From: an uncultured virus (IMG/VR IMGVR_UViG_3300023687_000086)
Lineage: Duplodnaviria; Heunggongvirae; Uroviricota; Caudoviricetes
DNA: 64,000 bases
Virus record (IMG/VR): IMGVR_UViG_3300023687_000086
Strand: one strand, 5' to 3'
The position numbers were made by a program, and so were the translations under genes. Each line of letters begins with the position of its first letter. Within the stretch, counting starts at the first letter, position 1. The notes under the pieces were generated by a model, which saw only the letters and a program-made list of their open reading frames with translations, had not been told where the DNA came from and made no database searches. This document shows positions 11,551 to 60,147 of the stretch, in pieces.

Positions 11551-11752
11551 ATATTTATTATAACAAACATTTGTTTGATTTTCAATCAAACACGGGCTTT
11601 AATCTCGGATACAAGTAACCGAGAATTCCTGCCAGAATTCTTAAATACGCCACGCGAGATACTATTTCATACTTTTCTTTTGACCTATCAATTATGATGG
11701 GTCGTAGTTCATCTTGATATAATTCCATGACAATATACCTCCTATGTGCACT

Positions 11753-23069: not shown

Positions 23070-23948
23070 TTAACTCGCTTTTTCGTACTTCGATACGAAC
23101 TCTTCTTCGTTTCGGACCCCAGCCTTCTTGTACACCTCAGATAAAACCTCGTCTTCTGGAAGTCGGTTACCGATATACCACATACGCTTAAAGATATCAT
23201 AGTAAATCTTTGCATCCAGATTATTCTTAACATAGATACGATTCACTGTATATGATCTCTTAAAGTGACTAATATAGGTAATAAAGAATCCGTCCATAGT
23301 AAGCTCCGGTTCATCAGATGGCTCTGGAACCTTGTACATTGGCATCAATTTAAGCATTACCTTAAACGTAGCCTTTACATCTTCGATTGCCTCATGGAAA
23401 TGGGTATCATCCGCAACGCCAAAGAATTCAGCCATTGTTGCAAGCTTGTGATTAGCAACTTCCGTTGGCTTTCTATCCTTTCTTCGATTTGCTGGGATTT
23501 TCTCCTTAGCCATACGGCACACATCTAAATGTTCCGTGCACCAGAATGAGGAGCCAATTGTCTTCTTGTAGAACGCGTCTACGAGCGGCTCATCGAATGA
23601 AATAGAATTGTAGCCACACAGTACCGGGTTGTCGCCCCAGAAGTTATGAATAATATCATAAGCTTCCATCTGCGATACACCATCAGTATCTACTTTCTCC
23701 TGTGTGATTCCGGTAAGCTCTGTAATCTTCTCCGGCACTGGATATCCTGGATTGATGTAAAGATCCAATGTATCTACAATATTTAGTCCTGTGTTTGTCA
23801 CTGATACCTTGACGGCACTAAACTCAATAATATCAACAACCGGATCCTTGCCGGGGATACCCGTCGTCTCTAAATCGAATACGAAAAACTTGCCGGCCTT
23901 CTGAGCTGCCTTTTGGAATCTAATTACTTTTGGTCTGTATTGATCCAT
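23070..23948 (-). CDS. DEDDh 3'-5' exonuclease (DnaQ/PolC-exo-like)
   Basis: VFDLETTG, ITELTGIT, GYNSISFD, HEAIEDV. Confidence 0.9.
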   Translation of the reverse strand: MDQYRPKVIRFQKAAQKAGKFFVFDLETTGIPGKDPVVDIIEFSAVKVSVTNTGLNIVDTLDLYINPGYPVPEKITELTGITQEKVDTDGVSQMEAYDIIHNFWGDNPVLCGYNSISFDEPLVDAFYKKTIGSSFWCTEHLDVCRMAKEKIPANRRKDRKPTEVANHKLATMAEFFGVADDTHFHEAIEDVKATFKVMLKLMPMYKVPEPSDEPELTMDGFFITYISHFKRSYTVNRIYVKNNLDAKIYYDIFKRMWYIGNRLPEDEVLSEVYKKAGVRNEEEFVSKYEKAS

Positions 23949-24505: not shown

Positions 24506-24593
24506 ATTACACACACATCCATTCAAATTGAATTTCACTAGAATTTAGTGTATAATATAATTAGTGAAAGCTATTTCACAAGAGGTATATAGT

Positions 24594-25733
24594 ATGGAAC
24601 AATTAACAATAACAGCAAAAGTTCAAATTATTGTTACTGATGCAGACAAAACTCTCTTAGAAGAAACGATGTCTGCTTATTGTGCTGCTTGTAATTATGT
24701 TTCAGACTATGTATTTAAGACACATAATCTATCACAAGTACAGCTTAACAAAGCTTTGTATTATGACCTTAGAGAGAAATATTCTCTAAAAGCTCAGATG
24801 GCTCAGTCGGTTCTAAAGACTGTAATCGCCAGATACAAAACTATTCTTGAAACAGAAAGCAAATGGATTAAGCCTTCTTTCAAAAAGCCACAATACGACC
24901 TTGTATGGAACAGGGATTATTCGCTTACAGGTGAATACTTTTCGGTAAACACCTTAAGTGGAAGAATTAAGTTGACGTACCACTCTGAAGGTATGGAAAA
25001 ATATTTTGACCATACAATCTACAAATTTGGCACGGCAAAACTTGTAAACAAACACGGAAAGTATTATTTGCATATCCCAGTTACATACGACGTTGAAGAA
25101 TTTGATTCTTCTAAAGCCACCAATGTTGTTGGCATTGATAGAGGTATCAATTTTGTGGTGGCTACATATGATAGCAAACATAAATCTTGTTTTGTAAACG
25201 GCAGAGCTATCAAGCAAAAGCGATCTAATTATTCAAAGCTTCGTAAAGAACTCCAAATGAGAAGAACACCATCGTCAAGACGAAGAATTAAAGCTATTGG
25301 TCAAAGAGAAAACCGTTGGATGCAAGATGTAAACCATTGCATATCTAAGGCACTCGTTGACAATAATCCAAAGCATACATTATTCGTATTGGAAGATTTA
25401 TCAGGTGTTCGTAATGCTACGGAACGTGCTAGGACTAAAGACCGCTATGTATCTGTTTCTTGGTCATTTTACGACCTTGAACAGAAATTAATTTACAAAG
25501 CAAGACAGAATCAATCAACTGTAATCAAAGTAAACCCTCGTTATACATCTCAATGTTGCCCTATGTGTGGACATATTGAGAGAAGTAATAGAGACAAGAG
25601 ATTGCATCTGTTTTGTTGCAAAAATTGCGGTTACAAGTCTAACGATGACCGTATTGGAGCTATGAATCTGCACCGTATGGGAATAAACTATCTTGAAGAT
25701 AGTCAAGTACCTAATGCAGTTACAACTGAGTAA
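24594..25733 (+). CDS. tnpB: TnpB RNA-guided endonuclease
   Basis: VGIDRG, FVLEDL, YTSQCCPMCG...CKNCG, NDDRIGAMNL. Confidence 0.93.
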   Translation: MEQLTITAKVQIIVTDADKTLLEETMSAYCAACNYVSDYVFKTHNLSQVQLNKALYYDLREKYSLKAQMAQSVLKTVIARYKTILETESKWIKPSFKKPQYDLVWNRDYSLTGEYFSVNTLSGRIKLTYHSEGMEKYFDHTIYKFGTAKLVNKHGKYYLHIPVTYDVEEFDSSKATNVVGIDRGINFVVATYDSKHKSCFVNGRAIKQKRSNYSKLRKELQMRRTPSSRRRIKAIGQRENRWMQDVNHCISKALVDNNPKHTLFVLEDLSGVRNATERARTKDRYVSVSWSFYDLEQKLIYKARQNQSTVIKVNPRYTSQCCPMCGHIERSNRDKRLHLFCCKNCGYKSNDDRIGAMNLHRMGINYLEDSQVPNAVTTE

Positions 25734-35898: not shown

Positions 35899-37263
35899 TT
35901 ACCAGGTGATATCTGAAAACTCAACTACATATTCGATTGTAGCCTGGCATTCCTGATAAGCAATGACCTCGTCAAAACAAAGTCTACGAACGGTTGCATC
36001 TCCTTCGTGTCCAGCTTCCGCCCATAGCACGTCACAATCTGGAACCTGCTTGTGAAAATCTTCCCAATGGTTTGGACGATAGTGGTTTGGTAATTTGGCT
36101 CCGTGTTTATCGGTACCGCGATAGTAATAGTACGGATTTCCAGTTGCTACCTTAAATATCAAAAGATAACCACCCCTGTTTGAACCGCCACGATACCTAG
36201 CACCTGCTGCCGACGTATACCCCATGGACTTACGGCAATACGGTGCAAAGTAGATACCATAACCAAACGCCTTACCACAGATTCGCACGTTAGACTTGAT
36301 CAGCTCTGGGTTCAAATACAATCCGCTCTTAAAGATGGACCATATATTCTCGAACCCTGTTCCGTGCCAAAGATGAGATATACCACCGTTTTCCTCGGTG
36401 ATGCCGCGCTTCTTACAATAATCCTGGAATCGTTTCTCGGTCTCATGATTTGTTACATGCCAAGCACGAACAAAATTCCCGGATTGATCGGACATGTATT
36501 CCAAAATCTTTTGCCTCTCATCTAATGTGACATCTCTCATTTCAAGGTTATTCGCTTCAAGAACAGTCTCACGCTCCAAAGAGCCAGATTCGTATGCCGC
36601 TTTCTCTTCATTGAATTCACGGAGCTGCTGACAAATGGTATCCAACTTCTCCTGAAGCAATGAAATGACACGTTCATAATGCTCGTAGTCATTCTGCATC
36701 GTGAAATAACCATCGTGCTTTGAAATTGCAAGCGGAAGCTGAGTAAATACTTCTTTTAAGTACGTATTAAACGTCTTAACATCAAGTGACTTATTCTGAA
36801 GCTCCATTTGCATCTCAATCAAGATTTCATTCGCTCTATCAATACATTCCTTTGGGATCTCTTCGATAGACTTCGTGTAATCTTGCTTCAATTTCTCGTC
36901 ATTTGCCAAAATAATCGACTCAACGAACTTACTGATTGCACGATTAGCGATATCCTTGAATTCCGAAACGATGGTAAATTCATGCTTTGTTACTTTCTGG
37001 TCTGTAACGAACTGATAACCTCTATTAAGGTAACGATTAATCTCATTACCCCAATCAGAAAGTGGCTTTTCGAGCCTTCTATTGCGGTTCTTACCAAACC
37101 GAACCTGTGTACGGCCGGTTGAGACTGTAAACATCTCCTTGTTAAGTATCGCATTGAACTCGACCGTATCGGAACTTACCTCTCTTGTAACGTTATCCTG
37201 GGATACTAACCGAAGCGTAACAAATGGTGTTACTTTCGGATCTAAAATATTGATATCGCTCAT
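35899..37263 (-). CDS. PARP-like ADP-ribosyltransferase
   Basis: LWHGT...GKAFGYGIYFA...KSMGY...DEVIAY (H-Y-E triad), preceded by a helical region. Confidence 0.85.
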   Translation of the reverse strand: MSDINILDPKVTPFVTLRLVSQDNVTREVSSDTVEFNAILNKEMFTVSTGRTQVRFGKNRNRRLEKPLSDWGNEINRYLNRGYQFVTDQKVTKHEFTIVSEFKDIANRAISKFVESIILANDEKLKQDYTKSIEEIPKECIDRANEILIEMQMELQNKSLDVKTFNTYLKEVFTQLPLAISKHDGYFTMQNDYEHYERVISLLQEKLDTICQQLREFNEEKAAYESGSLERETVLEANNLEMRDVTLDERQKILEYMSDQSGNFVRAWHVTNHETEKRFQDYCKKRGITEENGGISHLWHGTGFENIWSIFKSGLYLNPELIKSNVRICGKAFGYGIYFAPYCRKSMGYTSAAGARYRGGSNRGGYLLIFKVATGNPYYYYRGTDKHGAKLPNHYRPNHWEDFHKQVPDCDVLWAEAGHEGDATVRRLCFDEVIAYQECQATIEYVVEFSDITW

Positions 37264-41463: not shown

Positions 41464-43023
41464 CTATGCATATATAACTTCAGCAAAGATACCAAGTTCT
41501 AGATGCTTCTTGATATCCTCGTCCGTAAAGCTACGTTTTGTACGCAAATCATTGTCCAATGATACCAGGTTCGTCTGGAACACATCTTCCGTGATTCCTT
41601 CATCCTCAGAAAAGATTCTAGGTTTGCGTTCCGGATTATTGAATGTTAATACTGCATACTGAATATGACCAGCACTCTTAATCTCAGCCTTTAATACGTC
41701 CAATTTCTCAAAGAACGTATCCATGTTTGAGAACACGAAAAGTTGAGACGCCGACGTAACAATAAATAAGTTACAACAGAAATGGCCACCACGGTTGATG
41801 CCATCAATGATATCGCCTAACACACCAGCTTCTGTTGCGTTGTGCTCATATACAATATGTTCCTTGTATTCACCACTAACATCATCTGTAGCACCTTTCG
41901 GATCAAATGCTTCGGCCGCCTTGATTATTTCAGCTTTCTCATCCACAACTTTTTTAGGGTCCCTAATTTCCGGCTCCGGTCGAACAGACATTACACGAGG
42001 TTGACTCTCGGGGAGTGGTTTCTTGTTTTGACCCGACTGATTTTTAGAAGGCTTGTTCTTTTTATTCTTCTTTGTTACCTTTGGCGTAATCTCTGCCTGC
42101 GCAGGTAAATCTGGTTCCGGCTGAACGAACGTAGGGGCTGGCACCGCTTCTAATTCGAAAGTCTCGAATATATTTGCGTCCGTAACATCTTCTACTTTTG
42201 CCGATTGGAGTTCTGATTCTGGAACAACAATTGGTTCTTCGATAACGGGTTCTTCTTTCTTCTTCGATTTACCCTTTTGAGATCCTCCAAAGATACCCTT
42301 CTTTTTGCTCGAATCTGCCAGCTTCTGCTTAAACACACCCTTCCAGTATGTATTCCATTCCTCTTCGTCGTAAAATTCAACAGCAGCGTATTCCCAGTTT
42401 TCATGATATGTCGGCGGCGTAATTTTAGCACCGCGAAGTACAAACTGCAGCTTCATCGCGAACATATAATCCAATCTCGGTTCCTTCTTATCAGTAACAG
42501 AAATAACAGATGAAATAAATGGTAGGCCCTCTTTATACGCCTGGACCTGTTCTCTAGATGCCCCAACAGACACCAAATCAAATGGCATCACTTGTCCAAA
42601 TTGGTTCGCATAATCACGATCAAATGCTTCGACCAACTCAATATTGCTATCTGATGAATCAATAACCAAATACATTTTATTCATGTCGTTCGGGAATTCG
42701 TACATAAAGTTGACTTGCCCGAAGTCATAAATGCATACGTCTTCTACCGGTTCCAAATTTAACGGTTCCTGTTCCAAAGGCCATACTTCTTTATTGGTAA
42801 TCTTTATTTCCGGATAATAATGGACTTTATTAATAGTAAATGTGCCGTCTAATTCAACATTATTCTTTACGCGATGATATTCTGGTTTATCAATTTTTCC
42901 GGTCTTTTCGATTAGAGCGACACTTTGTTCATCGTCTCCAGCCATAAAGTTCGCAACGTGAATCGCAATGGCTGTACAACCAACATTCGGTTTTAATGAA
43001 AAAAATCCAATTTTAAAACTCAT
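41464..43023 (-). CDS. Hypothetical protein with degenerate MinD/ParA-like N-terminus
   Basis: IGFFSLKPNVGCTAIAIHVA...VALIE. Confidence 0.6.
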   Translation of the reverse strand: MSFKIGFFSLKPNVGCTAIAIHVANFMAGDDEQSVALIEKTGKIDKPEYHRVKNNVELDGTFTINKVHYYPEIKITNKEVWPLEQEPLNLEPVEDVCIYDFGQVNFMYEFPNDMNKMYLVIDSSDSNIELVEAFDRDYANQFGQVMPFDLVSVGASREQVQAYKEGLPFISSVISVTDKKEPRLDYMFAMKLQFVLRGAKITPPTYHENWEYAAVEFYDEEEWNTYWKGVFKQKLADSSKKKGIFGGSQKGKSKKKEEPVIEEPIVVPESELQSAKVEDVTDANIFETFELEAVPAPTFVQPEPDLPAQAEITPKVTKKNKKNKPSKNQSGQNKKPLPESQPRVMSVRPEPEIRDPKKVVDEKAEIIKAAEAFDPKGATDDVSGEYKEHIVYEHNATEAGVLGDIIDGINRGGHFCCNLFIVTSASQLFVFSNMDTFFEKLDVLKAEIKSAGHIQYAVLTFNNPERKPRIFSEDEGITEDVFQTNLVSLDNDLRTKRSFTDEDIKKHLELGIFAEVIYA

Positions 43024-43115
43024 ATTATTCCTCCAGTCTTTTATGTCATAAATATGAACTGATTTTTTACAAACAAGAAAGAAGCCTCATTTTAGAGGCT
43101 CCTTTTTGTATTATG

Positions 43116-44465
43116 TTAGTACGATTCACTAACGCCATCGTGATCAAGATCAACTCTTTCGCGCCGGTCATTAACGCCATTGTGATCTCTATCTTCCCAG
43201 TATCGGAGCTGTTCGTCCGTATATCCAAGAGAACGACGATATTCATATCCTTGTTCAAGGTACTTTTGTTCTTGCACCCGGAACGAATACGCAAGCTTTT
43301 CGTTTCCGTCTTTGCGAATACCTTCCTCGATATTACGTCTACGGTTCTCTTCTATCATAAGGCGTTCTCTTTGTTGCTGAATTATATACTCTTGCTGCTG
43401 AGCCTTTTCTCTTAACTCTTTTACTTGCTTTTCTAATTCATCAACACGGTTTCTAGTCTTTTGCATTCTAGAGGCGCCAACTTTAATCTCCTGCATACGC
43501 TCTGACAAATCGAAGTTTCGAACACGAAGGTCTCGAATCGTCTCTTTTGCTTCGTCCAAAGTTTTTGGCATATCTTTAGCCATTTCCTTTGCCAGACGAA
43601 CTTTATACTCTTTGGTCGTAATGTTGTTAATCCGCTGCGAGTTTCGTTCGCCCCTATGGTACCCAATGTAAGATACTGCATTTGCGTATTCGTCCTGGAT
43701 GTTTCCAAAGACAGCTTCCTTACCAAGCATCTCATAGTAGTTTAATCTTTCGATACCATCCTTATCCTTGACGAGCGGCGTACACATAATATGAATATGC
43801 GGGGTCTGTTCGTCCATATGCAGCTGTGCGGATACGACATTCTCCTCACCGAACCGTTCTTTTGCGAATACAACGGTAGCAGAACACCATTCATCGAACT
43901 CGCCCTGGTTCAGCGGCATTTTGAAGTAGCCTTTGCCAATCATTGGATTTCCGTCCTTGTCAAGAACCGGATTTCCACCTGGATCCGTTACCGGTTTTCC
44001 GGCAGTCGCGATTTCAGCAACATCTACCCTCGCATCCTCCGGAAGCGGAACGACATTCCCTTTCTCATCAAACTTGGACCAAATCATATCACCTGGGTAC
44101 GCCATTTCCATTTCGAACGCCAATACTCGGTCGTACCTATCGTTCGTTCGGTCCTTTGACGCCTTAAGAGCCTTTCCGTCTGAGTAACGAACAACATCTT
44201 CTCCATAAATTGGAACGTTGTCATTCGTATACTGCTTTCCAGAAATGCGGTTAATCAAATTAAGATAGATATCTTCCTGCGATTGGCCGTCCAACAAATC
44301 TTTGTTCATGAACTCGCGCCGCTTATCGATATGGGCACCGCGTCCTTCTTTTCCGATTCGGTTGTTATGACGTACCGCAGCTTTGATTGACTGCGCGGAC
44401 TTGAAATTCGATTTTATACTTATTTGCGCTGTGTGGCTTGTGTGATGAATTGCACTGTATGCCAT
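43116..44465 (-). CDS. MobV/Mob_Pre-family relaxase
   Basis: RHNNR; FGEENVVSAQLHMDEQTPHIH; QDEY; C-terminal coiled coil. Confidence 0.88.
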   Translation of the reverse strand: MAYSAIHHTSHTAQISIKSNFKSAQSIKAAVRHNNRIGKEGRGAHIDKRREFMNKDLLDGQSQEDIYLNLINRISGKQYTNDNVPIYGEDVVRYSDGKALKASKDRTNDRYDRVLAFEMEMAYPGDMIWSKFDEKGNVVPLPEDARVDVAEIATAGKPVTDPGGNPVLDKDGNPMIGKGYFKMPLNQGEFDEWCSATVVFAKERFGEENVVSAQLHMDEQTPHIHIMCTPLVKDKDGIERLNYYEMLGKEAVFGNIQDEYANAVSYIGYHRGERNSQRINNITTKEYKVRLAKEMAKDMPKTLDEAKETIRDLRVRNFDLSERMQEIKVGASRMQKTRNRVDELEKQVKELREKAQQQEYIIQQQRERLMIEENRRRNIEEGIRKDGNEKLAYSFRVQEQKYLEQGYEYRRSLGYTDEQLRYWEDRDHNGVNDRRERVDLDHDGVSESY

Positions 44466-44530
44466 AATCAATCACCCCTTTCTTTCTTGGCATTAATTAA
44501 ATATGGTACAGTTTTGCTGCGAACAAAAAG

Positions 44531-45977
44531 AATCACGTGATTCAATATCCGTATCTCAGGTGTATCCAATATCCGTTCCACCATCTTCGCACCACAATCT
44601 ACGACCCACAATCTTCGCGCCCTCATCTTCGCGCCACCATTATCGCCCCATTATCTCCGCCGCCATCCAGTTCTACCATCTGTTTCCACCTTTTCGGCCC
44701 ACCTATCCGGTCTAATATCCCCGTGCTACCAACCGCCAATTACGGAACAAATCATCCGATAATATGATTTTGTGCCGTTATTAGAACAATCCACGAACCA
44801 AATAACACGAATCCAACCATCGTCCCACCAATTCGAACCATCAATCGATTCTGATTTCACGGTTCCAGCCACACCGCGCCACCAATTCGCCTCTAATTCT
44901 ATCCACACCGATTAACCGCCACCAGCTATTGGCACCACCACCTCGACGCTATTTACCAGCATCAATGCATTCGCACCCAAGACATTGGTACCACCCTTTT
45001 CCTATATGAATCCACAATTATGTACCGAGTATATTGGTGCGTAGCGGCTTGTTCCGCATGGATATAGCACCGGGTATGTTGGTACGGCATTCAACGGCCC
45101 AAACTATTCGCCCCGGGATATTCATACCAAGTATATCGGTACACTTATCTAGAGCCTAAGCCAATCATACGTACCAAGTATGTCGGTACATTTTTATTCG
45201 GGTGTTGATTGTCGGCTGGCGTAATTTATACCAAGTATATATGGTGCTATTCTCTGCCGGCAGCAGGTATTGGACCCCATATTTTCATACCACCTATACA
45301 TGGTGCCAACTTTTCGATCTAATGTGCTTTGTCCGGGAATAGTCGCACCACATATACTCGGTACAGTCATTTCGTTCCTTGCAAGCAAACACGTACCAAA
45401 TAAAGACGGTACAAAGATTGTGGTGCAAAATGAATCGATGCAAAGAATATGTACCAAATAAAGACGGTACGAATGTAAGGTGCTACCATACCGCTATACC
45501 TGGTATGTAGGTAACAAGCCAACGCACCGAATATACTTGGTGCAAAAATCATGGTACGAATCAATCGAACGATAATAAAAGCACCATCTTATCTGGTGCG
45601 AAAGATATGCCACCGGCTGGTACAAATAGCTCCTCGCCCCGAATAATTGGTACCAAATCATTGAATCCAATAGACAGGCCACGTAAAATTAGCCTCGAGA
45701 ATCGCAGATTAACGTAGGAATAGGGTACGAAAGGTAGGGGCGTAGATTGTAGAACAAGGATTTTGGAAACCGCGTTGTGATACGAAGCTTTGGGATAAAG
45801 GAAGAGATACCGGAGTCGCACCGGTTAGTTGATTAATTATTTCAGGTGCATGTGTTTTGGGGTCGTAGGTGGATGCCAGTGATTTTGAATGTGAATTGCG
45901 CACCAAAAGGGTTGAATCGAGGGTAAATGGTGCGTAATTGAGGTACACCTGAGATACGGATACCCAATCACGTGATT
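44531..45977. repeat. Dyad-symmetric non-coding block with terminal inverted repeats and a palindrome array
   Basis: IR 44531-44564 / 45944-45977 (31/34); RYACC-N9/10-GGTRY boxes between 44973 and 45653. Confidence 0.85.
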
Positions 45978-46177
45978 ATATTTTGGCGCCCTCATCCACA
46001 AAAACTGGTCCAGGCCCCAGCCAAAAGTGCCGCAAAAGCGCGCCATTTTACGATTAAAGAATGAGTACCAAAATCAGTCGAATAATTATCACGCGATTAT
46101 ATTCACGCGTTTGTTTTCGTGTGAAAATCCATAATCGTCTTCATGATGAATTGTATTTATTTTCGTACACCAAAAAA

Positions 46178-46211
46178 GTTTGTCACAAAACAAATAAAAA
46201 TGATACGTATT
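46178..46211 (+). promoter_or_regulatory. Class-2 motif
   Basis: Exact copy; points into the AT-rich repeat tract. Confidence 0.7.
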
Positions 46212-46235
46212 AAGTTCGTGGATACGGCACCATAA

Positions 46236-46580
46236 TTTTCGTACGTATATATACGAACAATAAATAATCGTTCTAATAATTCGTACGTCTTTTATGGATA
46301 CCAAGAACAAGTATCAATAACAAGTACCATTCTCTACGAACTAATTAGTACGTATATTAGGTACCATAATTAGATATCACTATTCGTATCCTAGAAATAT
46401 ACGTTCATTTTAAACATATAATATATAACTAAGGTTATATATCTATACTCTACTACTAATCTTTACAGTATCTATATTGGTACGTATATTAGAACGATTA
46501 TATTAGTACGGATTAATAATCACGTATTCTTTAAAGAACCAATATAAGTACGAATTATCGTTCAACAATATATACGTATA
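46236..46580. repeat. AT-rich tract with recurring GTAC/TACG words
   Basis: GTACGTATATTAG at 46348 and 46480; GTACGTATAT at 46241. Confidence 0.6.
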
Positions 46581-46624
46581 TCAAATTTATCATTCTAGTT
46601 TTTATTTGATTCCGAAAAATACTC

Positions 46625-46633
46625 CATATTTAA
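46625..46633 (+). promoter_or_regulatory. Class-1 motif CATATTTAA (representative copy, recJ)
   Basis: Same motif as before the - strand genes, here flipped with gene direction. Confidence 0.8.
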
Positions 46634-46671
46634 ACTGAACTTAAAACATGCATATGAAAGGAGAATGAAAA

Positions 46672-48348
46672 ATGGCATGGATTAAAAGAAGCATTTTAAA
46701 CACTGTATCGGAGATCGTAATGGAACGAACCGGTATGACAGAAGACGAACTGGTAAACGATTCCAGAGTGTACTTCTACCCTAACATCCCGGAAGCTGCA
46801 GCTTTGACTGTTAAACATATCAAGGAAAATCACGTAATCCGTTGCTACGGAGACTACGATACGGACGGCGTTACGTCTCTGTTTATCTTGGAAGACGGAT
46901 TCAAGACAATCGGTTACGATAATGTTGAATTCATCGCTCCAAGACGATTTTCTGACGGATATGGAATTAACGTTGCTAGAGTTAAGGACCTGTATGAGGA
47001 AGGCTGCCAGTTGCTTATCACCATCGATAACGGTATTGCAGCGCTTGATGCGATTCAGTTGGCACGAACTCTTGGAATGGATGTAATTATCCTGGATCAC
47101 CACGAAGCATTTGTAAACGAAACCGGTAGCATTGAACTTCCGAATGCAAATGTAATCGTCGATCCACACGTAACCGGCGGCTTTGTAGTTGGCGAAAATC
47201 ATAGGTTTGAAGACTTATGTGGCGCAGGAATCGGATACTATTTCATCAAAGAACTATTCACGCAGCTCGAGCTAAATCCGAATCTTTATGAGGACGCGAT
47301 GCATGAAATTACGATTGCAGCAGGTATTGGAACTGTAGGAGACTTGGTTGAGCTCGTAGACGACAATCGTCGAATCGTAAGACGTGCGTTAGAGTACATG
47401 TCCAAAGGATATGGTACCGCCGGACTTCGTTGCTTGATGGAGGAACTTAATATTGATCATCCAAGTAGCACTGATATCGGATTCGGAATCAGTCCTTGTA
47501 TCAACGCAAGTGGTCGATTATATGACACTGGCGCCGAAATGATGGTCAAGATGTTAATGCATCGAGAGTGTGACGAAGAACTGGCTCGAATGGTATCTGA
47601 TGCGAAAAAGACGAACGACGATCGTAAAGAGATGACTCGTAAAGCTGTAGCAAAGGCTGAGGATATGATGCTTGATCGTGGTGACGAAAGCGTTATCGTG
47701 TTACTCGACGACGAACTCTCTCCGGGTATCGCAGGCCTCGTGTCTTCTTCTTTGACAGAAACATATTATCGCCCGTCAATTGTTTTGACCAAAAATGCGC
47801 TGAACGTTTGCAAAGGATCCGGACGTTCTATTCCGGAGGTCGACTTGAAGGGCTCCTTGGACCAGGTTCAGAACTTACTGCTTGCATACGGTGGTCACCC
47901 AATGGCAGCAGGTGTTTCCATGAAGGCTGAAAATGTTGATGCCTTCCGGGATGCCATTTGCGCAGTTGTACCTAAGATTCCGATGCCTACGGACCGTTAT
48001 TACGATATCGAAGCTTCGACCGATATTACCGAATTAACCGAGATTCTTAAATCCATCGAAAAATTCGAACCATACGGTCAGGGAAACGAACCGCTTACGG
48101 TCTTTATTCCAGGAATCGAACTTGGAGACTCCATGGGAAATACGCATCGTATGATTGGAAAAGACAAGACGCATGTTAAGTTTATGCTTAAGAATAAGCT
48201 CGACATGGTTTGGTTTGATGGGGCCGCTGAGTACAATTTACTCGGTAAGCCAAAGAAGATCGACGTTTTGTGCGAATTGGGATGGAACTCGTTCAACGGA
48301 AATACTTTTGTTCAGGTTCGAATCAAACGACTTCGACCAGCAATGTAA
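46672..48348 (+). CDS. recJ: ssDNA exonuclease RecJ
   Basis: GDYDTDG, ITIDNG, ILDHH, INASGRL, GSGRS, GGHPMAAG, EPYGQGN. Confidence 0.93.
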   Translation: MAWIKRSILNTVSEIVMERTGMTEDELVNDSRVYFYPNIPEAAALTVKHIKENHVIRCYGDYDTDGVTSLFILEDGFKTIGYDNVEFIAPRRFSDGYGINVARVKDLYEEGCQLLITIDNGIAALDAIQLARTLGMDVIILDHHEAFVNETGSIELPNANVIVDPHVTGGFVVGENHRFEDLCGAGIGYYFIKELFTQLELNPNLYEDAMHEITIAAGIGTVGDLVELVDDNRRIVRRALEYMSKGYGTAGLRCLMEELNIDHPSSTDIGFGISPCINASGRLYDTGAEMMVKMLMHRECDEELARMVSDAKKTNDDRKEMTRKAVAKAEDMMLDRGDESVIVLLDDELSPGIAGLVSSSLTETYYRPSIVLTKNALNVCKGSGRSIPEVDLKGSLDQVQNLLLAYGGHPMAAGVSMKAENVDAFRDAICAVVPKIPMPTDRYYDIEASTDITELTEILKSIEKFEPYGQGNEPLTVFIPGIELGDSMGNTHRMIGKDKTHVKFMLKNKLDMVWFDGAAEYNLLGKPKKIDVLCELGWNSFNGNTFVQVRIKRLRPAM

Positions 48349-51959: not shown

Positions 51960-52560
51960 CAATATATTCGTTCGTATTATTAGTACCGTAAATATCGCAA
52001 ATATTATCCATACTATAAATATTGTAAGTATGCTAACTACTACCCTCTCATCTTACATTCAATTTTCGATGATGCTAGGCCTTGATTTTACGGGCATTTC
52101 CTTTTGGTGGCATTTTAACGAACCAAGTCGAACATTCCCCCGCATCGACGTGTTTGTTCGAATACTCGGAAATAAAAGCACGTTCTATACTATAAATACT
52201 GTAGATACTTGAAGTATTTGTAGTATTTATAGTATTGTTCATATTTAATGTATTAATAATACGCAAAATACTATTGACACAGATGTCAAAAACCCTCATA
52301 ATCGTTCTTGTAATACTTACAGTATCGTAAATACCACAAATACTATAAATATTATTGATATTACAAGTACTATTTATATTATACGTCTCACAAATATTGT
52401 CATCCCTATAAATATTAGTCATCTCATAGGTATCACAAATAATATAGGTAGTACAAATATTAATAATATTTTAAGTACAAAAGATATGCTACGTATTGTA
52501 AATATCATACATATTATAAATACTGTAATTACTATAAATATTAATAAGACTATAAATAAA
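51960..52560. repeat. Degenerate 9-bp repeat tract (putative centromere)
   Basis: ACTATAAAT at 52012, 52189, 52342, 52531 and 52549 plus many variants; abuts parA. Confidence 0.65.
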
Positions 52561-52568
52561 GGAGAGGG

Positions 52569-53366
52569 ATGGAAATGCCTGTAATTTTTACAATCGCAAA
52601 TCAAAAGGGTGGAGTCGGAAAGACAATGACTGCAAAGGAGTTGGCCTACGTTTGGAGTACGCAAGGTAAAAAGGTATTAGCAATTGATGCAGATCCACAG
52701 TTAGGACTTACTCTTCGTACCAATGTTGAAGAGAATAAGAAGATGACTCTTAAAGCAGCCTTGGAGGGATATATCATGGCGGAGGATGCTATTGAATCCA
52801 CCGGAAGCTACGATATCTTAAGAGGAGATAAGCGCCTTCGAAATGCATCTACCGATTTTAATCTTACTGAGGATAAGACTGCATTAAAGGAAATCCTAGA
52901 AGAGCTTGATTATGACATCATTATCATTGACGGGGCGCCTGGAGACTCGATCCTATATGATATGAGCTATATCGCTAGTAACTATATCATCGCACCAGTA
53001 GACGCTTCACCGGAGGCAGTAGCAGGCCTTGCAGAAATGTACAATGTTATTACCAAGTACAAAGAAGAGGGTATAACGAACGTAAAGATTCTTGGAACGC
53101 TAATGTGCCGCGTTAAGATGGCATTTGGTCACCCAAGTTCCTTATATATCGACCGATACAACGAATTGTCTACGTATATTAAAGATTTGATTGGAGCAGC
53201 TCCATTCGAAACTTATATCCGCGATACAGATAATTGCGGTAACGCTTCAGGCGTACAGATGGCGGTAAATGAATACAACCCAGATTGCAATGCTGCACAG
53301 GATTATTTGGCACTAGCTGAAGAGATTTTAAACCGGATCAAATACTTAGATGGCGTGGAGGTATAA
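52569..53366 (+). CDS. parA: ParA/Soj partition ATPase
   Basis: ANQKGGVGKT, AIDADPQ, IIIDGAP. Confidence 0.93.
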   Translation: MEMPVIFTIANQKGGVGKTMTAKELAYVWSTQGKKVLAIDADPQLGLTLRTNVEENKKMTLKAALEGYIMAEDAIESTGSYDILRGDKRLRNASTDFNLTEDKTALKEILEELDYDIIIIDGAPGDSILYDMSYIASNYIIAPVDASPEAVAGLAEMYNVITKYKEEGITNVKILGTLMCRVKMAFGHPSSLYIDRYNELSTYIKDLIGAAPFETYIRDTDNCGNASGVQMAVNEYNPDCNAAQDYLALAEEILNRIKYLDGVEV

Positions 53367-53368
53367 TT

Positions 53369-54091
53369 ATGAACGACTTTAAAGTATTATCTGCAGCAGA
53401 GATTGCTGAACTTTCGTCGGCGGATAGAAGAATTTATATGCGTAAGCTTAAGGAATATAACAATCAAAAGCACGTATCTTCAGTTCTAACTTCGCAGCCG
53501 ACAAGAGAAAATGAAGAGCAGCCTTTTGGGACCGAGCCAATTCACTCGAGAGAAGTAGTTTCAAGTTTTATATCAGCAGAAGAGCCGGTAACTAAGGTCC
53601 ATACTGAAGAAGAACATACCATTAACAGCACCAATACTATAAATGCTATAAATAGTAGCAATACTGTAAATACCAACGTGGAATCGATGCAGGCGGCATC
53701 AGTTACTCCGAAGGTGGAGCAACAGCCAACAATGCGGCCAGCAGAAAAGAAACCAAAGATAACGAATGATAAATCGCTGTTTTCATCTATTTGTTTCGAA
53801 ACAACATTTGAGCGAGCAGATTACATTCGACGCATGTCATTCCGGAACCACTTAACGAAGGAAGAAATGTACGCAGCATTATTTGAAGACACAATGAGCC
53901 TGGAAATTGATTTTAAGGATCCGTTATATCGGTCACTAACGGAACGGTCCAAAAAGGATACGAAGATCACGACCAGGTTGAACAAAGACCTGCTTCAGAG
54001 GATGAGAGATCGAGCAGCTGATAATTATATGAATATTGGTGCATATATCAACTACGTAATCCAAAAGCACATGGAAGAGCACGATAATTAG
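53369..54091 (+). CDS. Putative centromere-binding protein (C-terminal RHH-like)
   Basis: Follows parA; disordered middle; KITTRLNKDLLQRMRDRA...IGAYINYVI. Confidence 0.6.
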   Translation: MNDFKVLSAAEIAELSSADRRIYMRKLKEYNNQKHVSSVLTSQPTRENEEQPFGTEPIHSREVVSSFISAEEPVTKVHTEEEHTINSTNTINAINSSNTVNTNVESMQAASVTPKVEQQPTMRPAEKKPKITNDKSLFSSICFETTFERADYIRRMSFRNHLTKEEMYAALFEDTMSLEIDFKDPLYRSLTERSKKDTKITTRLNKDLLQRMRDRAADNYMNIGAYINYVIQKHMEEHDN

Positions 54092-54665: not shown

Positions 54666-55112
54666 CTTGTGAATATGGTTGTTTATAATGGTGATTTTGG
54701 TTATGCGCTATGGAGTGTTTGGTCTCTTCTGATGGAGTATTTGGTGCTTCATAGTACCAGATTTTCTGTACTTAGATACCAAAATTTCTGGAGTTTGCTT
54801 TTTGCCGGCGATGGTACGGTATAAATGGTGTTTTATCCGTTGGAAGTGGTATTTTTGGTGTTTTCTTTAAAAGGATGGAAATTTTGTTACCATTATCTCC
54901 AACAATACAACCAAAAACACTATAGATAACACCATATTTACGGCAAATAATACCAAAAACACGTTAAATAGTACCAAAGACACATAGTTCTATGAAATTT
55001 AGTTACCATTTTAGCTGCAAAGACCACCAAAAACACAATTACAAGCACCATATTCTCGGTTGCAATTACCAAATACACCATACTTAGAGACGTAACGATG
55101 GAGTGTTTGGTT
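54666..55112. repeat. Iteron array of Rep 1
   Basis: ATGGWGWDTTTGGT-like units at 54666/688/710/732 (22-bp period); inverted ACCA units at 54889/910/931/952/973 and 55005/026/047/068 (21-bp period). Confidence 0.75.
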
Positions 55113-55168
55113 GCACCTTTTTTGACTTTCTGTATAATGAAACTAGGTTAGTGCAAAAGGAGGTAAAT

Positions 55169-56569
55169 ATGGCTGCTTCTTCTGACTTTCAACAGATGTC
55201 TGTAAAAAAGTCGAATCAATTTGTATCTAGTTATTCGCAGAAAACTGTTACGGAGAGTATTTTAGTTCTTGCTGCGATTGGACGCATCCAGGAGAAAGAA
55301 GTTTTAAATGATGATCCTGAGCTTGTGGCGGAACTTTACCCAAGCGAGTTAAAACAGATTGTTTCTGACAAGAATCACATATATAGAGAACTCAAAAGCG
55401 CCACATCATCTTTGATGAAAAATAGCGCAATTATGATCTTCGATGATAAGAAAAAGGAGTTCCACGCGATTCATATGATCCGCAAGGCTGATTATGAAAA
55501 CAGTATATTCAAAGTCACTTTTGAATCGGAGCTAAAACCTCACATCTTAGCACTAGAAAAGAATTACACGACGCTGCAGCTGTCCATCATGTCATCATTT
55601 CGTTCGATTGGATCGTTTCGGTTATATGAGGTCTTTTCTGCGGAACGTGGCTTGGAGTTATCAGCCAGGTCTAAAAAGGGAATTAAAAATGATTCTGGTG
55701 AAGTTGTGCGTGAATATAATATTTCGCAGCTTAAATTTATGCTTGGCTACGCAGATGCTACGGATCGAAAATGTGCAGAACTAATAAAGAATGCGACGTC
55801 CGACGCCGATTGGGATACGGCATATGATATGCTGGATAAAAAAAGCAAAAAATACAAAGTCTACAATGACTTTATAAAAAACGTGATTGAGGTCGCAAAA
55901 GAAGAGCTTCGAGAAAAGTCGGACATTCGATTCGAATATACGCCGATAAAAATAGGACGAAGTTACAAACGCATTCGTTTTTACACATACCCTAACGTCC
56001 CGGAGAATCCTAAGATTATCGATGAACGCGCGGATTATATCCAAAAAACGTTCCGGATGAATGATGATCAGTTGGAGATTCCATATGATCTGGAAGAGTA
56101 TGCAGATCTATTTGATGTATATGTGGGACACAATGGCTTAGCAGCTGAGGATATCAAAATCTTCCTTGATGAGTGCGGCGGCGACAAGGAACTGGTAAAA
56201 CGTTCCATTATATTAGCAGATGAGCAGGAGAACCTCCATAATTACGTTGGATGGATCCGGGCCTGCGTGAAAAACGGCGGATACGAATCAATTCATACAC
56301 TTGATGGTTCCAAGAGCCGGGCAGAGCGTGTTGAACAAATTGTGGATATGCATAGAAACCTTCCGGAAAATGCTTCTTTCCAGGAACGGCTATGGTCCAG
56401 AAAGCCGGACGATGATAAGTATTTCTTATTTAAGGGCTATTTAGATGAGCATGGTATTGAGTTATCGGATTTCGAGCTCGCGTATAACGTCGATGAGAGG
56501 CTCATTATATACAAAGCAATTATTAATGGCGAAAACAGCATATTAGAACGATACGGATTACCGGTATAA
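55169..56569 (+). CDS. Rep_3-family replication initiator
   Basis: VKKSNQFV, LKPHILALEKNYT, SFRLYE, VIEVAKEELREKSDI; RBS AGGAGG. Confidence 0.85.
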   Translation: MAASSDFQQMSVKKSNQFVSSYSQKTVTESILVLAAIGRIQEKEVLNDDPELVAELYPSELKQIVSDKNHIYRELKSATSSLMKNSAIMIFDDKKKEFHAIHMIRKADYENSIFKVTFESELKPHILALEKNYTTLQLSIMSSFRSIGSFRLYEVFSAERGLELSARSKKGIKNDSGEVVREYNISQLKFMLGYADATDRKCAELIKNATSDADWDTAYDMLDKKSKKYKVYNDFIKNVIEVAKEELREKSDIRFEYTPIKIGRSYKRIRFYTYPNVPENPKIIDERADYIQKTFRMNDDQLEIPYDLEEYADLFDVYVGHNGLAAEDIKIFLDECGGDKELVKRSIILADEQENLHNYVGWIRACVKNGGYESIHTLDGSKSRAERVEQIVDMHRNLPENASFQERLWSRKPDDDKYFLFKGYLDEHGIELSDFELAYNVDERLIIYKAIINGENSILERYGLPV

Positions 56570-57022: not shown

Positions 57023-58345
57023 CTAGGCCTCTTTTCTTCGATTCAATAATTTTCGCTCCAGGTCGTCGTAATCATAGTCACGTTCCTGGAAATTATGAAA
57101 TTTATTTTTTGCTGCGGATTTAACCGGGGCATCCTTTTGGACATATTCAAATTCGCCAGATTCCAATTTATACTTAAGCAATGCGAATTTCGATCTTGGT
57201 TTCTTCATGGCGTTGATATTCATAATAGAACGCATAACCTCCATCATGGTTCTATTATTTGATTCGTACACTGTAATAATAGTACGAATTTCTGGAAGCG
57301 TTAATCCAAAATCCTTAAGTAGATCTACTAAATCTTTATGGGTAATGAATGGGTCTACCTCTATTGGATCCTTCTCTTGTTTAGGTTGCTCCGGTCTTTT
57401 CTCTACTTTCTTTTGTTTTGTGATATCAACGAACCGGAATAAAAATCCGCTTGTACTCCTACCGGATTTCTTCTTTTCATATGTAAAGGTAACATCAATA
57501 TTTGGAACCGCATCGATGTCACGTTTGGCCTTATCTAATAGACGCGTAATATCCGGAACACGATACTTGGAAGTATATCCTAGGTACAGCTGCAGTTCCT
57601 CAAGACTAATTTCCACAATACCAGGCGTCGCGGTAGGATAAGCCTTATAATTTTTGAACGTTTCCGCAACATAAAACATGTTCCTGCTATATTCGGACGA
57701 AAGCTTTGATAACCATGTTGTAGAATAATAAGCTCCGTGCAATAGGCCGGCAGCCTTAACAAAGGCTTCGAAGTACGGAGTAGGCCGGAACTTAAAAGTA
57801 TGGTTTTTAATGGATGTGCTGCCATTTGGAATGAATTCATCGAGGATCATAAACCAAGGAATCCGGAAAATATGCATACCGTCAGCAGTTGAAATGTTAA
57901 GTTCCATCAATACCTTTTCTTTTAATAGCGGCAATGCCTTTTTTAAAACCTGGTAACCATTGTTGCTACCCTTCGCATATCCAAGACGTTCGTCTAATTC
58001 TCGAATCGGAATTTCATAGACCTTTAGATCTGGGTACGTAGACATCTCGGCCAACAGGACGTCCATAATGTTATTTTCGTAAATTGTGTAATTCGGCCTG
58101 GAACGTAAAAATAATACCTCCGGACGATAAGCAATACTAGAACCACCTTTCTTATTAGGGTTTAGGTTGTTTTGAGAAGAACATATATATTGAACCGCAT
58201 CTTGTGGTCGTTCACAAATCAATTGAATGAAGTCATTGGAACTAAGTTTTTTCTGCGGAGCCTTTGGCTCTTCTATTATTTCATCAACGACGGCGCCACT
58301 TGGCATTAATACCATCTGGCCGTCTAAGTTTTTGTCGTAATTCAT
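57023..58345 (-). CDS. Second Rep_3-like replication initiator
   Basis: LSSEYSRNMF, ISLEELQLYLG, LLDKAKRDI; C-terminal KNKFHNFQERDYDYDDLERKLL. Confidence 0.75.
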   Translation of the reverse strand: MNYDKNLDGQMVLMPSGAVVDEIIEEPKAPQKKLSSNDFIQLICERPQDAVQYICSSQNNLNPNKKGGSSIAYRPEVLFLRSRPNYTIYENNIMDVLLAEMSTYPDLKVYEIPIRELDERLGYAKGSNNGYQVLKKALPLLKEKVLMELNISTADGMHIFRIPWFMILDEFIPNGSTSIKNHTFKFRPTPYFEAFVKAAGLLHGAYYSTTWLSKLSSEYSRNMFYVAETFKNYKAYPTATPGIVEISLEELQLYLGYTSKYRVPDITRLLDKAKRDIDAVPNIDVTFTYEKKKSGRSTSGFLFRFVDITKQKKVEKRPEQPKQEKDPIEVDPFITHKDLVDLLKDFGLTLPEIRTIITVYESNNRTMMEVMRSIMNINAMKKPRSKFALLKYKLESGEFEYVQKDAPVKSAAKNKFHNFQERDYDYDDLERKLLNRRKEA

Positions 58346-58432
58346 AAAACGAATTTCTCCTTGCCGACAAAACGCCGGCGATACACACACATCATTTCAA
58401 TGCACAAAGAGTCATCACACCAAAACGACCCT

Positions 58433-58640
58433 TGTGAGATTCATCACACTACACTCAATTCACATTTATAAGTGAATTATCTTGAAAGCCCATAAATAGG
58501 GCGGTTTGAAAACACAACGTGGTAAACATAAACCAACATTGTGAGACCTATCACATTTTGTGTAAGTTATCACGAGCTTGTGTGAAGGCCATCACAAACG
58601 GTTGTTGAATCAATCACCTTCGTTTGTGAGACCCATCACA
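58433..58640. repeat. Iteron array of Rep 2 (TGTGA-N6-TCACA)
   Basis: Perfect copies at 58433, 58540, 58581 and 58625; variants at 58559 and 58603; 22-bp phasing. Confidence 0.8.
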
Positions 58641-58738
58641 CCAAAAATACAATAAATGCAGTAAGAATGCATATCAGGGAGGTTGTTCCTTTACCTATGA
58701 CTATACAACTATCTACTTTTATTATACTTCCCCGTTAA

Positions 58739-59110: not shown

Positions 59111-59189
59111 TTTTGTCACAATTTGCCGGCCAATGATACGTATTTAAAATATCGTTTGTTTTGTTTCCAAAACCAGATTTCATATTTAA
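59111..59189 (+). promoter_or_regulatory. Tandem class-2 (59111-59144) and class-1 (59181-59189) motifs before the sigma gene
   Basis: Both motifs exact. Confidence 0.78.
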
Positions 59190-59217
59190 AGCATCATTAA
59201 GAAAGGATGGTACACGT

Positions 59218-60147
59218 ATGACAAAGTGGACAAAAGAAGATGCCGAATACAACAAGTATCAAAGAGGAAAAAACGGCAGCACTAAAAGTTCGCTAGAAAT
59301 TACATTGGAACGTGCAAAGGATATTCCATTGTATTCGTCTGAAGAAGAGTTACGCGTATTTACTGAATATAAAAGTAATCCGACCACAGAACTACGAGAC
59401 GAAATTGTTATGCACAACTTAAGACTCGTGTCATCCGTGGTTATGTCATACAAAGGAACAAATATATTGAGCCAGGATGACCTGTTCCAGCAGGGTATTC
59501 TAGGATTGCTTAGAGCTATCGAAAAATTCGAGCCGGATAAGGGATATAAGTTTTCTACTTATGCAGTATGGTGGATTCGTCAGTCAATAGGTAGACATAT
59601 CGATGATGCGGAACGAACGATTCGAGTTCCAATCCATGCAATGGATTTATATAAGAAGGTAAATCGACTCCAAAATGAAAGAGCCTTGGCGAACAAGCAG
59701 CCGTACACAAGAGATGAACTTAAAAGCATATTAGGCAAAACGGATCTTGAACTTGATGCGATTGCATCGATTCGCGGTTCCGAAACGGTATCTATTTCAT
59801 CCGTGGTATCGGAAGAACATGGTGAAGCAACAGAGCTTGGCGATTTCATCGAAGATCCGAATTGGAACAAAAAATTTTTGGATATCGAAATGGGATCGTT
59901 AAAGGGTTGTTTTGAAGAATGTCTCCAGAATTACCTATCAAATCCAAACTTTGAAACAAGTAGAGAGCGTACGGAAGGTATCCTTAGACGGCGTCTGGGA
60001 CTAAATCCGGATGGAACTATAGAAACATTAGAAGAAATTGGAAAGGATTATGGCATTACGAGAGAAAGAGTTCGGCAAATCGAGGCTAAATTTATGAAAT
60101 ACTTAAGTCGACCTTACAATATACGTAAGTTAAGAGAGTTTTTATGA
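59218..60147 (+). CDS. RpoD-like sigma-70 factor lacking region 1.1
   Basis: HNLRLV, DLFQQG, KFSTYAVWWIRQ, RTIRVP, TLEEIG...TRERVRQIE. Confidence 0.93.
   Translation: MTKWTKEDAEYNKYQRGKNGSTKSSLEITLERAKDIPLYSSEEELRVFTEYKSNPTTELRDEIVMHNLRLVSSVVMSYKGTNILSQDDLFQQGILGLLRAIEKFEPDKGYKFSTYAVWWIRQSIGRHIDDAERTIRVPIHAMDLYKKVNRLQNERALANKQPYTRDELKSILGKTDLELDAIASIRGSETVSISSVVSEEHGEATELGDFIEDPNWNKKFLDIEMGSLKGCFEECLQNYLSNPNFETSRERTEGILRRRLGLNPDGTIETLEEIGKDYGITRERVRQIEAKFMKYLSRPYNIRKLREFL

Follow-up and report, generated by a model that had tools for sequence, protein, structure and literature searches.

The stretch of DNA considered here comprises 64,000 nt (the window, in what follows) of an uncultured virus assigned to the Caudoviricetes (IMG/VR record IMGVR_UViG_3300023687_000086), and the subject of this analysis is a mirror-symmetric block of ~1.45 kb at its strand switch, whose boundaries coincide with those originally proposed. 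The block is contained in a gene-free region of 2.2 kb (44472-46671) between a relaxase gene, which opens a 44-kb gene block on the minus strand, and recJ, which opens a mostly plus-strand gene block. Among open reading frames (ORFs) selected by hand after shadow ORFs had been dropped, 36/37 lie on the minus strand to the left of the block and 14/18 on the plus strand to its right. Inside the block, the ORFs yield solely low-complexity, composition-driven translations, none of which is credible, and it is therefore treated as non-coding; a scan of 43000-47500 against Rfam gave no family match. The features of the locus are the following:

43116..44471, minus strand: relaxase of the MobV/Mob_Pre type, unusual in its N-terminal region of 180 aa; the 44-kb minus block begins with this gene
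44503..44564, unstranded: terminal inverted module of the left side, with a 14-bp palindrome, GAATCACGTGATTC, at 44530-44543
44565..44960, plus strand: C-rich left arm with a tandem array of 14-nt period at 44578-44637 (consensus CCACAATCTTCGCG)
44973..45599, unstranded: 13 quasi-palindromic boxes of the form RYACC-N9/10-GGTRY
45254..45263, unstranded: central palindrome CTGCCGGCAG, flanked by the last box that points right and the first that points left
45621..45943, plus strand: G-rich right arm, in which words of the left arm recur as degenerate reverse complements, for example GCGTAGATTGTAG
45636..45653, unstranded: degenerate 14th box (GCCCC...GGTAC), overlapping the palindrome TTGGTACCAA (45647)
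45944..46009, unstranded: right terminal inverted module, including AATCACGTGATT (45966-45977)
46087..46125, minus strand: third, partial copy of the inverted-repeat core ATCACGCGATTATATT, overlapping a strong promoter-like site
46100..46671, unstranded: AT-rich stretch (27% GC), a candidate unwinding element
46672..48348, plus strand: RecJ-type exonuclease, first gene of the plus block

An assembly artefact was ruled out by independent contigs of the runs X6, X7 and X8, which derive from other faecal samples and match parts of the block with 0 differences. At a depth of only ~4-5, contigs cross both terminal inverted repeats (IRs), those of X6 and X7 passing through both of them unbroken, and no single contig covers the whole block. 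No variation was observed inside the block across runs at this depth, and depth over the block equals that of its flanks, which marks it as single-copy. The RNA run X11 covers only 46173-46212 and parts of recJ, and its lack of cover over the block carries no meaning. A blastn search of the block against annotated plasmids and phages gave no match, the terminal IR module used as a pattern in viral contigs returned 0 matches, and a keyword search of the open-access literature yielded no description of such an array, which is not proof of absence.

Box array and mirror symmetry of the block

Boxes begin at all 13 positions listed in the original prediction, and the exact duplication of GTACCAAATAAAGACGGTAC that it reported is constituted by copies at 45393 and 45451. 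Throughout the 64 kb, 8 boxes with a spacer of 9 nt (N9) and 7 with a spacer of 10 nt (N10) were observed, as opposed to 0.39 and 0.31, respectively, in shuffled sequences; 13/15 of them are confined to 630 bp, and the other two, at 4521 and 40477, correspond to the chance level. Moreover, in 141 unrelated loci from the surroundings of other MobV relaxases (1.43 Mb), no more than one box per 800 nt was encountered.

Each box is composed of two half-sites arranged head to head at a distance of 14-15 bp, and the 26 half-sites give the consensus GYACC-R-A-n-T-A-T. The lengths of the boxes are not distributed at random along the array: the spacer measures 9 nt in the five leftmost boxes, 10 nt in the next five and 9, 10 and 9 nt in the last three. 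Centre-to-centre spacings fall into three classes of 36.5, 45-49 and 56.5-59 nt and are quantised by approximately one helical turn, with a coherence of R = 0.83 at 10.5 nt (p = 1.7e-4 in 100,000 simulations; p = 5e-5 when scanning 10-11 nt). The phase of the boxes amounts to about half a turn at 10.5 bp per turn, a value that hinges on the assumed helical repeat, while the quantisation does not. Such a fixed register of neighbouring boxes is as expected if proteins bound at adjacent boxes interact with each other.

The claim that the asymmetric core of the boxes flips its polarity at the centre was borne out in part. All polar boxes of the left half (5/5) point right and 5/7 of those in the right half point left, the duplicated pair being the exception; one box is ambiguous, and the flip as a whole attains a one-sided p of 0.027 in Fisher's test. 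Likewise, the perfect palindrome at the centre is present but ordinary as a palindrome, given that the window contains 68 palindromes of ten nt, equivalent to 1.55 per block length, and it is notable solely for its position 4.5 nt from the IR midpoint (about 1%).

The mirror symmetry of the block extends well beyond the boxes. In an alignment of the left arm with the reverse complement of the right, a score of 20.5 was obtained as compared to -60.8 +/- 8.1 for 100 local shuffles, approximately 10 SD above the latter, and direct comparison of both arms scored -37.5. The terminal inverted repeats match at 31/34 positions as claimed; a repeat search additionally delimited them as 40 nt at 88% identity (arms 44525-44564 and 45944-45983), and their homology continues outward to ~44503 and ~46009 with one 8-nt indel. 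The opposite composition of the arms was confirmed as well, GC skew being -0.525 at 44565-44960 and +0.483 at 45700-45900. The arms are nevertheless unequal: the right one shows a skew of +0.315 overall and is G-rich over just ~200 nt, and a clear 14-nt tandem array is found on the left only, where oriented CCACC/YACC words resembling half-sites occur too. The skew of the arms reflects these oriented repeat words. Taken together, the array is real and highly non-random and constitutes an unusual protein-binding architecture.

A core common to boxes, Rep_3 iterons and AT-rich stretch

According to the original prediction the block is far from both Rep genes of the window, and this distance is correct; yet the block is tied to one of them, a Rep_3 gene (rep in the following), by a common half-site core that had gone unseen. 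Two features are relevant in this respect:

54674..55111, unstranded: Rep_3-proximal iterons, comprising a reverse-oriented set of four spaced by 22 nt (54674-54753) and a forward-oriented set of nine spaced by 21 nt (54889-55092)
55103..56569, plus strand: Rep_3-family initiator (WH1 + WH2; Rep3_N E = 4.3e-22, Rep3_C E = 4.5e-13), candidate binder of the boxes

The called form of the initiator comprises 466 aa, which places its start ~22 codons into the ORF; a single-sequence search for it gave no PDB match, and relatives with 76-54% identity exist. Every iteron starts with ACCA, and an inverted pair (55068-55111) is located at the rep promoter. When a matrix derived from the box half-sites alone was run over the window, two of 128 bins stood out as the richest apart from the array itself, namely the Rep_3 iteron region, with 8 matches as compared to 1.06 +/- 1.03 in dinucleotide shuffles, and the AT-rich stretch beside the block, with 7 as compared to 1.11; in both cases 0/300 shuffles reached the observed number. 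No enrichment was detected at the repeats of parA or of the second Rep gene. In accordance with the matrix, the motif RYACCA occurs 12 and 10 times per 500 nt in the block, 10 times in the iteron region and 7 times in the AT-rich stretch, the mean of the window being 1.67 (sd 1.94).

The AT-rich stretch is distinguished by its low stability. Among the 500-nt duplexes of the window, its segment 46146-46645 is the least stable, at -1.126 kcal/mol per step as compared to -1.301 +/- 0.041, a rank that is tied with the par repeats; GC content along the stretch varies between 23 and 31%. The rep-proximal region, on the other hand, is not among the eight least stable segments of the window. The 7 half-site matches of the stretch have iteron-like flanks and are accompanied by GTACGTATAT words.

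Several further repeats were noted at this site. At 46200-46620 the word GTACGTATAT(TAG) occurs several times, and a perfect inverted pair of 15 nt is formed by 46264-46278 and 46487-46501. Tandem repeats of 14 nt at 46473-46515 have the same period as the left-arm array. The A-rich 40-nt segment 46173-46212, which contains the iteron-like word ACACCAAAAAAG, recurs with 5-7 mismatches and different flanks in several other contigs of the same metagenomes, and its summed depth reaches 11-33 in the DNA runs as compared to ~5 otherwise; the segment may be a mark of related origins or a low-complexity match.

Judged against the attributes of a plasmid replication origin (oriV), the locus gives a mixed picture. 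A Rep_3 initiator with WH1 and WH2 domains is encoded on the same replicon, and an adjoining AT-rich unwinding element is putatively provided by 46146-46645. Direct repeats of 17-22 nt at a spacing of about two turns are lacking in the block and are found at the rep-proximal site 54674-55092 instead. A comparison with operators of Rep dimers is similarly divided: the boxes, being two inverted RYACCA-type half-sites, reproduce in inverted-repeat form one end of the iterons, which begin with (RY)ACCA, and the block does not overlap the rep promoter, from which it is separated by 9 kb.

The main rival of an origin at this site, although in itself on the unlikely side, is a copy-number control locus, in which the boxes would bind Rep_3 dimers without firing and thereby titrate the initiator or engage the rep-proximal iterons by handcuffing or looping. 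The core is indeed common to boxes and iterons, yet the boxes are inverted, which is operator-like rather than origin-like; a canonical iteron array adjoins rep, and phasing by half a turn is unlike that of origin iterons. Moreover, dimers are described as the species that binds inverted repeats and acts in repression (PMC2367726), and handcuffing is documented. A pure sink, however, would need neither a position exactly at the gene-divergence point nor the vicinity of the most meltable DNA, and iteron-like sites within the AT-rich stretch are likewise at odds with it. Furthermore, the known control arrays are direct iterons near rep rather than dyad-symmetric blocks of 1.5 kb at a distance of 9 kb. 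In P1 incA and F incC, extra direct iterons are adjacent to rep and lie outside the minimal origin; the extra initiator sites of the block could titrate or handcuff in the same manner, but differ from these arrays in being inverted, symmetric, distant and situated where the genes diverge.

Host element, terminal modules and neighbouring repeat systems

The window appears to be a segment of a large plasmid from a host of the Clostridia/Lachnospiraceae type. Its Pfam gene set encompasses the alpha subunit of DNA polymerase III (PolIII alpha), Topo III, a Mob_Pre relaxase, RecJ, ParA, SSB, two Rep_3-type genes, a sigma factor and two TnpB genes. Relaxase and Rep_3 proteins identical to those of the window are encoded on contigs of up to 155,428 nt, so that 64 kb of ~155 kb are visible here. 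The nearest annotated Rep genes were found on plasmids of Roseburia (32% identity) and Butyrivibrio, and one Rep_3 relative with 39% identity is named as a protein of a Lachnospiraceae metagenome-assembled genome. On the Roseburia plasmid (NZ_CP135163.1, 105.1-106.4 kb), an array of ~850 nt with ~15 iterons of twenty nt (AAGAAACGGnCAAATTTACT) is located between the par genes and rep and is bounded by inverted copies at both ends, which may be a recurring trait of such origins.

RecJ and Topo III are encoded around the block, and SSB, PolIII alpha and an exonuclease similar to RNase T further out. The genes for PolIII alpha (15633-19634), the RNase T/epsilon-like exonuclease (23070-23948), a protein with a PARP domain (35899-37263) and a sigma-70-type factor (59161-60147) make up a replication and transcription gene set that is unusually self-sufficient for a plasmid. 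TnpB/IS605-OrfB genes (Cas12f-like TNB) are located at 10426-11589 on the minus strand and at 24564-25733 on the plus strand; the latter is the sole plus-strand gene in the 44-kb minus block and shows a skew near zero, as a recent insertion would. A 518-aa neighbour protein had no match in Pfam, NCBIfam, PHROG or PDB, and its atlas matches were uninformative.

The relaxase matches Mob_Pre/MobV over residues ~182-289 only, without a family match for its N-terminal part of ~180 aa or its coiled-coil-like C-terminal part, and its relatives, graded from 83 to 41% identity, are all encoded on uncultured contigs. Alignment of the relaxase family to viral and metagenome contigs gave, among the matches listed, only distant MobV relaxases of 26-40% identity, a few short segments reaching 61%; in viral contigs, no relative of the relaxase, RecJ or Rep_3 was found.

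Proximity to this gene raises the question of transfer. In one improbable scenario, the left terminal module would be the transfer origin (oriT) of the MobV-type relaxase, with the block serving as a site for the relaxosome or accessory proteins or, alternatively, with the right module as a second, inverted oriT. MobV oriTs immediately precede the relaxase gene, whose promoter they overlap, and the published one is an AT-rich sequence of ~43 nt with a hairpin and, 8 nt downstream, a nick (PMC5863519). The left module agrees with this position, as it lies 40-100 nt upstream of the relaxase start, its 14-bp palindrome being ~60-75 nt upstream. In addition, the published MobM contact site AAGtaTAGTGTG (PMC5863519) opens with 7 nt that are similar to the box core AAGTAT(A). 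The locus has in common with the oriT of pMV158 its place directly upstream of a MobV-type relaxase gene, a short palindrome and an AAGTATA word. Unlike that oriT of ~43 nt, however, for which overlapping hairpins and a defined GpT nick are described (PMC5863519), the block extends over 1.5 kb, its array alone spans 630 bp, and no significant hairpin is formed. Single-strand folding of the IR modules does not surpass that of shuffles (z = +0.26 for the module with the 14-bp palindrome, and z = -1.55). For the array, a moderate advantage over shuffles was obtained (z = -3.6 and -3.1), which its dyad symmetry would by itself predict. Moreover, the array recurs at 0/141 of the loci around other MobV relaxases, and the relaxase is only distantly related to MobM. 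The earlier suggestion of an oriT or single-strand origin thus finds no support for the block as a whole, given the size of published MobV oriTs (PMC5863519) and the shuffle-like folding of the IR modules; the left IR module could hold an oriT, but the 1.5-kb block itself is not one.

Also proposed was an invertible or resolution segment, to which a non-autonomous element resembling a miniature inverted-repeat transposable element may be added. The terminal inverted modules of 40-70 nt that flank the block are in favour of either, and both are nonetheless extremely improbable: no recombinase or transposase is adjacent, the two TnpB genes being 20-34 kb away; the X6 and X7 contigs crossing both IRs contain no strand-changing joint (depth ~4-5), and none was seen in 4 runs of low depth. 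Furthermore, the block is single-copy as judged from its depth, no target duplication is visible, and inversion would change little in a segment whose interior is itself dyad-symmetric.

The block lies within the 2.2-kb intergenic interval that separates the relaxase gene from recJ, with which the two gene blocks begin, and a strong promoter-like site at 46125-46096 (TTCACA-18-TATAAT, 11/12), at which the IR palindrome recurs, points into it. These observations would suit an operator array of a transcription factor for the divergent blocks, namely transfer on the left and maintenance on the right, a reading that nevertheless has little probability. The boxes are 500-1100 nt away from either gene start, promoter-like sites in the region occur at chance level (9 versus 9.1 +/- 2.8), and no regulator gene is adjacent. 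In addition, 13 phased sites with repeat arms of 400 nt exceed any operator known to us.

Two other repeat systems were recognised in the window, the first of which concerns plasmid partitioning:

51960..52565, unstranded: AT-rich repeats of 9-nt period, of the ATACTATAA / TAGTATTT type in both orientations, ~600 nt, directly upstream of parA
52569-53366: parA, followed by its partner gene at 53369-54091

The ParA partner (240 aa) has a weak C-terminal match to Arc-like ribbon-helix-helix proteins (E = 9e-4), and the 9-nt array is likely a centromere or operator for ParA and this partner, separate from the block. A 114-aa ORF within the array (52075-52422) is probably spurious. The second Rep gene, which has a weaker match to Rep3_C only, is located at 57023-58390 on the minus strand, divergent; upstream of it (58408-58646), five TGTGA-N6/7-TCACA palindromes resemble CRP sites in form. 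A link between these and the terminal palindrome of the block (TCAC-GTGA) was considered and dropped, the half-sites facing opposite ways and the common word measuring only 5 nt. The element keeps three repeat systems cleanly apart, comprising the par repeats, the rep-proximal iterons and the distant phased palindrome array with the iteron core only.

The presence of a dedicated par array weakens the proposal that the block is a centromere. A segregation or tethering array of palindromic dimer sites, similar to sopC or to the family of repeats (FR) of Epstein-Barr virus (EBV) and bound by another protein unrelated to Rep_3, is quite unlikely. With ~13 palindromes at a spacing of 36-59 nt and a fixed phasing, the array does resemble F sopC, which consists of 12 repeats of 43 bp, each with a palindromic site, and EBV oriP FR/DS, in which the initiator itself binds the array; in both of these systems, ~12-20 regularly spaced palindromic dimer-binding sites build a large nucleoprotein complex. 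Moreover, the extended similarity of the boxes to iterons is weak, and many neighbour proteins are devoid of annotation. In contrast to these systems, no ParB-type protein is linked to the boxes, the spacing is variable but phased instead of strictly tandem, and parA, with its partner of weak Arc-like similarity, has its own large 9-nt array directly upstream, which the half-site matrix does not match, so that a cognate binder and ParA are not linked to the boxes as in ParABS/sopC. Neither is there a second par system in the window, and the enrichment of RYACCA at the Rep_3 iterons, ranking within the top two of 128 bins, would have to be a coincidence.

A candidate origin region of a large plasmid

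Tentatively, the block and the AT-rich stretch are regarded as a platform for the Rep_3 initiator that may together form the origin region of a ~155-kb plasmid of the Lachnospiraceae type. Among the functions initially suggested, an origin is the best supported on account of the divergence of genes, the adjacent least stable duplex and the core shared with the Rep_3 iterons, and the notion of a large symmetric nucleoprotein platform agrees with the density of the boxes, their dimer-type palindromic form and their helical phasing. We infer from the sequence that Rep_3 is the binder, that it binds in the form of dimers and that replication starts at the block. The array is most fittingly grouped with initiator-binding repeat loci, as a variant with a putative function.

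Under the origin reading, the boxes would act as a dense platform on which a dimeric protein binds DNA in a sequence-specific manner, this protein most likely being the Rep_3 initiator of the plasmid itself; each box is an inverted pair of RYACCA, the motif that opens the 21/22-nt iterons beside rep. Owing to the fixed helical register of the 13 boxes, the bound proteins would assemble into one higher-order complex, which would be polar and point inward from both sides. The platform and the ~600-nt AT-rich, iteron-bearing stretch, which is predicted to be the easiest to melt, would then constitute the origin from which both gene blocks diverge, and the rep-proximal iterons 9 kb away could serve autoregulation or be coupled by looping. 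This model draws on the Rep_3/WH1-WH2 family, whose monomers bind direct iterons and whose dimers bind inverted repeats (PMC2367726), and on the finding that helical phase governs cooperativity (PMC4980987).

The locus resembles the iteron origins of Rep_3/WH1-WH2 initiators, such as F RepE, pPS10 RepA and R6K pi, in that a Rep_3 gene is present on the same replicon, repeated sites share a core, inverted-repeat sites exist beside direct iterons, an AT-rich stretch is adjacent and helical phase matters. It differs from them by its quasi-palindromes at 36-59 nt in place of 17-22-nt direct repeats at a spacing of ~2 turns, by the arrangement of 13 sites in a dyad-symmetric 1.5-kb block with terminal inverted modules, by its distance of 9 kb from rep and by the lack of a DnaA-box cluster. 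A parallel for a set of initiator sites far from the rep-proximal iterons is offered by R6K, where the alpha and beta origins are activated at a distance by pi bound at gamma, and looping would explain the existence of two clusters with one core; the distant origins of R6K, however, hold one iteron or a half-iteron pair, as opposed to the phased array of 13 boxes here. The gut 'Hodor' megaplasmids, recently described in a bioRxiv preprint as larger than 300 kb with a MOBH-like relaxase and a predicted oriV beside Rep_3, represent a different class from the present element.

Several observations weigh against an origin at the block. First, a canonical-looking iteron origin with direct 21/22-nt repeats and a moderately AT-rich flank adjoins rep, and the block is for this reason unnecessary to explain replication. 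The Roseburia plasmid likewise has all 11 exact iteron matches beside rep and no distant array, a comparison that decides nothing because a Rep identity of 32% is too distant. Second, the flanks of ACCA in the box array, with the core excluded, are only marginally iteron-like (p = 0.08; AT-matched p = 0.10), while those in the AT-rich stretch are clearly so (p = 0.003; AT-matched p = 0.02; n = 9); therefore, the boxes have just the 6-nt core in common with the iterons, and the fuller iteron-like sites reside in the AT-rich stretch. Third, the spacing of the boxes corresponds to half-integral turns at 10.5 bp per turn, a spacing that abolishes cooperativity in classical iteron arrays (PMC4980987). 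Fourth, the AT-rich stretch is present on one side only, so that the origin would be asymmetric. Fifth, DnaA boxes are not enriched: the window contains 26 one-mismatch matches to the DnaA-box consensus as compared to 19 +/- 4.4, with 2 in or near the block. Finally, on both sides of the block GC skew follows, gene by gene, the strand of each gene and therefore adds nothing beyond gene orientation as independent evidence.

Two additional candidates were rejected: a DnaA-dependent origin of the oriC type, as the block is devoid of a DnaA-box cluster, and a replication fork trap (Ter array), as gene orientation diverges at the block and cumulative GC skew has its minimum there instead of a maximum.

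It is conceivable, if doubtful, that the locus is a bacterial plasmid origin built on a dyad-symmetric plan, closer to viral origins such as EBV oriP and oriL of herpes simplex virus than to known iteron origins. In such an origin, 13 phased initiator-dimer sites would converge on a centre and be framed by inverted boundary modules, with bidirectional loading of the replication machinery and looping to the separate iteron/rep control locus 9 kb away.

Gut Clostridia harbour numerous large plasmids, most of which are uncultured and little understood, and the AT-rich DNA beside rep is commonly presumed to be their origin. If the array were an origin or a long-range control site, it would represent a new mode of DNA organisation by a Rep_3 initiator, characterised by inverted sites, a half-turn register and mirror symmetry. 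It would, moreover, provide a compact and testable model for coupling over a distance in plasmid replication, improve the prediction of origins for metagenomic plasmids and supply parts for vectors of the Lachnospiraceae.

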